DNA from: a virus
Length of the DNA stretch: 22,377 bases
Reading direction: 5' to 3' (one strand)
Virus genome (UHGV): UHGV-0172060
Position 1 is the first letter of the stretch. Every line of letters starts with the position of its first letter. The notes beneath the pieces are model-generated. The model searched no databases and was not told where the DNA came from. It saw only the letters and a program-made list of their open reading frames with translations. This document shows, one piece after another, positions 18,261 to 19,499 of this stretch. The position numbers and the translations under genes were made by a program.

Positions 18261-19499
18261 TGTTCTTTTCGGGATTATTTCAACGAAAAAGTGACGCACC
18301 GGTGACCACACCAGCAGAGCTGGCGGATGCTATCGGGCTGTCATATGACACCTATACCGGAAAGCAGATCAGCAGCCAGCGGGCCATGCGACTGACGGCG
18401 GTTTTTTCCTGCGTCAGGGTGCTGGCGGAGTCGGTCGGGATGTTGCCCTGCAACCTGTATCACCTGAACGGCAGCCTGAAACAGAGAGCCACCGGCGAAC
18501 GTCTGCATAAACTGATCTCCACGCATCCCAATGGCTATATGACGCCGCAGGAGTTCTGGGAGCTGGTGGTCACCTGTCTGTGCCTACGGGGAAACTTTTA
18601 CGCCTACAAAGTGAAAGCATTTGGCGAAGTGGCTGAACTGCTGCCCGTCGATCCCGGCTGTGTGGTACCGAAGCTTAACAGTAGCTGGGAGCCGATCTAT
18701 CAGGTCACATTCCCGGATGGCTCCACGGATGTACTGAGCCAGGAGGATATCTGGCATGTGCGCACGCTGACGCTGGACGGACTGGTGGGGCTGAATCCCA
18801 TCGCCTATGCCCGCGAGGCAATATCGCTGGCAGCTGCGACCGAAGAGCACGGGGCCAGACTGTTCAGCAATGGCGCGGTGACGTCGGGTGTGTTGCGTAC
18901 AGAGCAGACGCTGTCAGATCAGGCTTATGAGCGCCTGAAGAAAGATTTTGAGGAGCGTCACACCGGGCTTGGCAATGCTCACCGCCCGATGATCCTTGAG
19001 ATGGGGCTGGACTGGAAGTCGATGGCGCTGAACGCCGAGGACAGCCAGTTCCTGGAAACCCGCAAGTTTCAGCTTGAAGAAATCTGTCGTCTGTTCCGGG
19101 CCGTTGCACATGGTGCAGAACACCGATCGCGCCACCTTCAACAATATCGAAGAGCTGGGGCTGGGATTTATCAACTATTCACTGGTGCCGTATCTGACCC
19201 GCATCGAACAGCGGATCAACACCGGACTGGTACGAAAAAGTAAGCAGGGCGTTTATTACGCCAAATTTAACGCCGGGGCGTTACTGCGCGGGGATATGAA
19301 GTCCCGTTTTGAAGCCTACGCCACCGGGATCAACTGGGGAATTTACTCTCCCAATGACTGCCGCGACCTGGAAGATATGAATCCGCGTCCCGGTGGTGAT
19401 GTCTATCTCACACCGATGAACATGACCACGAAACCCTCCGATGGCAGTAAAGCCGGTAAGCAGAAGGATAACGCCAATGCAGACGAAACAACGTCTTGA
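18260..19499 (+). CDS. portal protein (HK97 family), reading frame interrupted near 19098-19100 (possible pseudogene or sequence error)
   Basis: GTG start with GGAGG SD; N-terminal ~280 aa in one frame, C-terminal ~130 aa (PLHMVQNTD...) continues in another frame; the switch is at the ccgggcc run. Confidence 0.75.

Follow-up and report, generated by a model that had tools for sequence, protein, structure and literature searches.

The DNA analyzed here, a stretch of 22,377 nucleotides that we refer to as the window, carries on its plus strand an HK97-type head module with the gene order small terminase (TerS), large terminase (TerL), YmfR, portal, prohead protease and major capsid protein (Table 1). 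Judged by sequence, the source is a temperate E. coli prophage of the e14 family, similar to SfII, SfI and SfIV, with a predicted HK97-type head and Mu-type contractile tail. The tail genes lie beyond the window, in a contig of assembly ERZ1034923 (locus L004) and in E. coli D53-1, and include those for sheath, tube, tape measure, DNA circularization and the baseplate proteins J, gp46 and gp47. Across the packaging and head module (window positions 15800–22377), identity was 98.2% to Escherichia phage vB_EcoM-720R4 and, among Shigella phages, 97.9% to SfII, 97.6% to SfI and 97.3% to SfIV, in matches that covered 98–100% of this interval. All four are temperate myoviruses with an HK97-like head and a gene order like that of the window. 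In SfII, for example, TerS, TerL, a ymfR-like gene, the portal, the protease and the capsid protein follow one another in the same succession. Over its whole length the window is closest to a prophage in E. coli D53-1, with 99.3% identity; this prophage adjoins a dusA fragment.

The portal gene of this module is split into two ORFs (18260–19243 and 19074–19499 in the ORF list), which lie in different frames and overlap by ~170 nt. The first ORF agrees with the intact portal of 413 aa at each of residues 1–280, and this native part ends in the residues QLEEICRLFR. Both ORFs matched the Phage_portal family (PF04860), for which the bit-score cutoff is 39.1: the first at profile positions 2–232 of 321 (E = 4e-72, 243.6 bits) and the second at positions 234–321 (E = 2.3e-27, 96.5 bits). 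Jointly, the two fragments cover positions 2–321 of the 321-position profile, with the coverage divided over two frames. The N-terminal residues that the second ORF gains from its own frame (MKKSVVCSG, 19074–19100) are absent from the intact portal. Furthermore, we read no Shine-Dalgarno-like motif in the sequence upstream of any of its possible start codons (TTG 19074, ATG 19110 and GTG 19113). Sequence, gene neighbourhood and homology to a solved structure place the locus in the HK97 family of portals, as a pseudogene rather than a functional member because its coding sequence does not form one continuous ORF.

Table 1. Features of the head module and of the disrupted portal locus (window coordinates).
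Feature	Coordinates	Strand	Description
Small terminase (TerS)	15842–16336	+	164 aa; overlaps TerL by 4 nt
Large terminase (TerL)	16333–18066	+	577 aa; Pfam TerL_ATPase and TerL_nuclease; no internal stops in comparison with D53-1
ymfR	18078–18260	+	60-aa predicted membrane protein, intact; between TerL and portal
Portal 5' fragment	18260–19243	+	327 aa; start = 2 mod 3; GTG start at 18260; M1–R280 native (280 residues), then 47 out-of-frame residues and TAA at 19241–19243
Second portal ORF	19074–19499	+	141 aa; frame 0 mod 3; contains PLHMVQNTDRATFNNIEELGLGF
5' extension of second portal ORF (MKKSVVCSG)	19074–19100	+	Overlaps first ORF; mechanical, not portal sequence
2-base deletion site	19099–19101	+	From pairwise and multiple alignments with intact genes
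Portal 3' remainder	19101–19499	+	P282–S413 and stop, in the +1 frame; lacks its own start signal
HK97-family prohead protease	19477–20127	+	PF04586; intact; coordinates mapped from the D53-1 annotation
Major capsid protein	20142–21347	+	PF05065, E = 2.7e-79; intact

Alignment with intact portal genes identified the lesion as the loss of the dinucleotide GT after position 19099 (equivalently, TG after 19100) from the sequence CCGG[GT]GCCG, which destroyed codon V281. The site reads CCGGGTGCCG in intact genes and CCGGGCCG in the window, and the frame junction lies inside ccgggcc at 19096–19102. This is the run to which a first-pass annotation had assigned a break in the portal frame near 19098; the location was correct and the break is real, as the two ORFs match consecutive parts of the portal profile. 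Its proposal that a one-base insertion or deletion would restore a single portal of ~413 aa was half right. Translation after removal of one base at the junction restored the frame and gave 412 aa, whereas addition of one base did not restore it and led to a stop at codon 313. The native 413 aa returned when two bases were added, since GT and not a single base had been lost. The suggestion of a homopolymer sequencing error finds no support, because the missing G and T are not part of any homopolymer run and their loss changes no run length. Once GT was reinserted after 19099, the gene matched the allele of E. coli UID2309220036 (bases 3001–4242 of locus L001) at all 1242 bases. The restored protein of 413 aa was identical at 413 of 413 residues to the entry 'MULTISPECIES phage portal protein [Enterobacteriaceae]', and at least 1000 contigs are recorded with this intact portal.

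The break falls within the most conserved block of the family, F(R/G)VPxHxV, which aligns with the motif FFGVPPHLV of the HK97 portal structure 8CEZ. The HK97 gp3 portal (PDB 8CEZ/8FQL; PMC10359639) belongs to the same Pfam family but is a distant relative in sequence. The intact allele, identical to the GT-restored gene, matched 8CEZ over residues 27–385 (E = 1.1e-51) and a second solved portal, 9LBN, with E = 1e-49. Portal architecture is summarized in the HK97 structure paper, in which we found no residue ranges for the portal domains (PMC10359639).

We mapped the annotated CDSs of the D53-1 prophage onto the window and found 32 of the 35 at full length and free of internal stops. The three exceptions were the portal, a length variant of TerS and a small ORF altered by a 63-bp deletion. 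Intact early genes encode a PrtN-like activator, a repressor, a cro-like protein, replication functions, two methyltransferases and the antiterminator Q. Intact later genes include the lysis cassette and those for an HNH protein, TerL, the protease, the capsid protein and connector proteins. Over 22.4 kb, window and D53-1 differ by only three indels. Two are the deletions of GT and of 63 bp in the window; in the third, D53-1 has 8 additional bases (TCTGACAA) at the 3' end of TerS, opposite window position 16315. The extra bases alter the C-terminus of the D53-1 protein and separate it from TerL. The 164-aa TerS of the window is the common form, shared with SfII, UID2309220036 and the carrier contigs described below. 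The next 6.9 kb in the contig of ERZ1034923 (L004), which span the tail terminator, sheath, tube, chaperone and tape measure genes, among others, aligned with D53-1 without indels or amino acid differences. The structural module had been described as otherwise intact, and this holds both for the other window CDSs that we compared and for the ~6.9 kb of tail genes in the carrier contig.

Two other parts of the prophage deserve mention. The two intact DNA methyltransferase genes (window 8364–9017 and 12862–13914) encode a Dam-like N6-adenine enzyme and a member of the N6_N4_Mtase family, the latter gene lying directly upstream of the lysis cassette. The ymfR gene overlaps the portal gene by a single base, which closes ymfR and opens the GTG start of the portal. 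Its hydrophobic product is kept in e14, SfII and hundreds of E. coli prophages, and annotations give it no function. The SfII counterpart is annotated as a putative integral membrane protein and has a putative terminator annotated inside it.

We searched 5,426 complete E. coli genomes with the portal locus (18260–19499) by megablast and recovered a full-length match in 1,092 of them. Among the top matches listed, the aligned gene had 1242 bases against the 1240 of the query and carried the annotation 'phage portal protein' as one gene. We then queried the same genomes with 83 bases centred on the break, and 1,086 of the 5,426 gave a full-length match; the best identity, over all the matches listed, was 97.6%, which is exactly the 2-base gap. 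None of the 5,426 complete genomes contained the deleted GT junction by this 83-base query. The comparison with intact homologous portals that had been proposed earlier showed a continuous ORF with GT present both in SfII and in ~1,086 complete E. coli genomes. The number of portal matches per E. coli genome had a median of one place and reached 4, and many genomes held 2–4 copies. An exact scan with a 37-mer across the junction had no hit among the species representatives of GTDB, the viral contigs of IMG/VR or the metagenome contigs of JGI, so the recurrence of the deletion rests on a look-up by protein identity.

This look-up recovered the exact 327-aa truncated product on 7–8 contigs in ENA and Logan, all of which may derive from one clone. 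We fetched four of these carrier loci: ERZ1034923 NODE_10, a 146.8-kb SPAdes contig with a k-mer coverage of ~64x; ERZ1034844 NODE_47, with a k-mer coverage of ~5.4x and 100% identity to window positions 8260–22377; ERZ27289074 k119_3979, which has a MEGAHIT-style contig name; and a Logan assembly of SRR7658649. The first two have nearby accessions and may share a study. In all four the junction lacked GT, and the sequence on either side was the same as in intact genes. A literature search on the four carrier sample accessions returned no paper.

Two haplotypes occur among the carriers, and the 63-bp deletion, located at window position 12742/12743, is the sole difference between them. The deletion is present in the window and ERZ1034844 and absent from ERZ1034923 and ERZ27289074. 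It is flanked by GGCGG..GT microhomologies and extends a hypothetical ORF (12571–12834) from 67 to 87 aa. No complete E. coli genome matched the 63-bp-deleted junction as a single piece. A lone 'SNP' at 12742 in the BLAST alignments of the window with the contigs of ERZ1034923 and ERZ27289074 was discarded as an alignment artefact of the boundary of this indel. Because the two haplotypes share the GT gap and differ only by the 63-bp deletion, the GT loss was inherited. The likely order of events is loss of GT first, followed by loss of the 63 bp in a sub-lineage. We also noted that two of the carrier contigs, ERZ1034844 NODE_47 and ERZ27289074 k119_3979, both stop precisely at window base 22377, where the head-closure gene overlaps the gene that follows. 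The shared end suggests a branch in the assembly graph produced by a second related prophage with the same tail module.

These results led us to assign a probability of about 90% to the reading that the portal of this SfII/e14-type prophage carries a genuine, recent and lineage-specific deletion of GT and that the prophage would yield no infectious virions without a portal provided in trans. Translation from the GTG at 18260 would shift frame after R280, add 47 wrong residues and terminate at 19241–19243. The truncated product would lack the last 133 residues, or about the final quarter of the conserved domain. The missing segment probably contributes the clip, the tunnel and stem helices and the crown of the portal. 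The downstream 132 portal codons would have no start signal of their own to be expressed from. The heads of tailed phages require a dodecameric portal for DNA packaging and tail attachment. A portal without its C-terminal third would be expected to form no dodecameric channel able to nucleate proheads, dock the terminase and bind the connector and tail. Upon induction, the lysis, capsid and tail genes would still be expressed but no DNA-filled infectious virions would be predicted to form, unless portal arrived in trans. This prediction follows from the truncation of the portal and the essential role of portals in the assembly of tailed phages, and we infer the loss of portal function and the virion-less phenotype on the same grounds.

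The lesion could also affect the neighbouring genes. The start of the protease gene overlaps the native 3' end of the portal. With the frameshift, translation of the portal terminates 234 nt short of this start, and the early stop might reduce the expression of protease and capsid protein by polarity. The protease has its own ribosome-binding site, AAGGA, ~10 nt upstream of the ATG. Low-level spontaneous +1 frameshifting may also occur at the portal junction.

The phenotype may also depend on the rest of the genome. If the cell carried another SfII/e14-like prophage, its portal could act in trans and mask the defect, a situation that we regard as unlikely here. It is in keeping with the presence of up to 4 matches to the portal gene in E. 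coli genomes and with the two carrier assemblies whose contigs stop at 22377, perhaps because another element contains the same repeat. However, the contig break may have other causes, genomes hold a median of one portal place, and we saw no second copy within the window and its 10-kb flanks. Masking is in any case compatible with a real deletion, as it would change only the consequence.

It is very improbable that the true portal gene is intact and that the 2-base gap is an error of base calling or consensus. The low coverage (~5.4x) of the ERZ1034844 contig, which is 100% identical to the window, is the one observation in its favour. However, the deletion is also present in the 64x SPAdes contig, in the contig with a MEGAHIT-style name and in the Logan assembly of another run. 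The lost bases, GT, are not a homopolymer run, and a systematic context error is implausible given that the identical context was assembled with GT in ~1,086 genomes and at least 1000 contigs. The recurrence across pipelines of a 2-base, non-homopolymer loss, while more than 1000 assemblies keep GT, indicates that the deletion is real and rules out a one-off sequencing error. We take it to be a recent, inherited allele that is private to a small lineage. Of the two explanations offered by the first-pass annotation, a genuine mutation is the one borne out, as the identical deletion occurs in the four samples listed above and GT is kept by ~1,086 complete genomes and SfII.

Two readings accept the deletion but give the locus a function. 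We find it hard to credit that a prophage without a portal is kept because it is useful, either through SOS-induced lysis combined with Mu-type contractile tails, as in tailocin-like particles, or through a role of its own for a stable N-terminal fragment of 280 residues. If this were so, the fragment may interfere with related phages that superinfect the cell or with defence systems that sense portals, and the GT deletion would be a first step of domestication rather than neutral decay. We give next to no credence to programmed +1 (or −2) frameshifting near CGG-GCC, or to assembly of a portal from two separately made halves. A +1 shift near the junction would give a near-native protein within the ~170-nt overlap, and CGG, a rare arginine codon in E. 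coli, could favour ribosome pausing there, but the ORF is continuous in the other homologues examined (SfII, D53-1, UID2309220036 and ~1,086 complete genomes); UUC CGG GCC, read by eye, resembles none of the known +1 slippery patterns; the start codons of the second ORF all lack a Shine-Dalgarno-like sequence upstream; the break interrupts the family's best-conserved motif; and the carriers are essentially identical to one another and to the intact allele, which points to a very recent event. The two-ORF arrangement is not a conserved feature of homologues, as had been considered earlier, and was found only in the 7–8 near-identical contigs.

The GT deletion is a case of ordinary early prophage decay, as in Salmonella ST64B and the beeE gene of the K-12 prophage e14. 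In deposited phage genomes such as SfII, the 413-aa portal is continuous and contains GT, whereas the window copy is split and lacks it. The SfII portal (gp04) is otherwise nearly the same protein, with 410 of 413 residues (99%) identical to the GT-restored product. The head module of ST64B belongs to the same family, with 88.8% DNA identity over 94% of the window module. PMC7067206, which cites Figueroa-Bossi and Bossi (2004), describes ST64B as a prophage that forms no infectious particles owing to a frameshift in a tail assembly gene, a lesion conserved in its host lineage. Like the window prophage, ST64B is otherwise complete and has one frameshift in a structural gene. The affected step differs: ST64B forms heads and fails to make tails, whereas the portal lesion in the window prophage should abolish heads and leaves the tail genes intact. 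Furthermore, the ST64B defect and its reversion have been demonstrated experimentally, while that of the window prophage is predicted from the sequence.

The cryptic prophage e14 of E. coli K-12 illustrates the end state of decay within the same phage family. It has the same ymfR-portal junction (ymfR-beeE-jayE), and BeeE (bases 4732–5205 of the K-12 e14 locus, L008) matches the first 136 residues of the window portal (98% identity) before it continues into unrelated sequence. A large internal deletion in e14, from the middle of the portal to the baseplate, joins beeE to jayE, a remnant of a baseplate gene. In contrast to e14, which has this large deletion and several pseudogenes, the window prophage has a small portal lesion and the 63-bp deletion and is otherwise intact.

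Inactivation of a structural gene by a single mutation in an otherwise complete prophage is a well-known phenomenon, and the window provides an instance of it. The lesion opens no new question, and its value lies in annotation and strain biology. The locus is best annotated as one portal pseudogene with a frameshift, rather than as two separate genes. A prophage-prediction tool that calls it 'intact' would overestimate the ability of the strain to release infectious phage. The locus also offers a clean and datable example of the earliest decay, with a 2-base deletion followed by a 63-bp deletion in a sub-lineage, in a phage family that ends as e14 in K-12 and has a frameshift-defective relative, ST64B, studied experimentally.

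A 194-aa 'hypothetical protein' of E. coli (P0007) shares a 90%-identity cluster with the portal in the protein collection. We considered it as a second kind of broken portal and ruled it out, as its best BLASTP match had E = 3.4 and the two proteins are unrelated. Its membership in the cluster is probably a clustering artefact of the collection.
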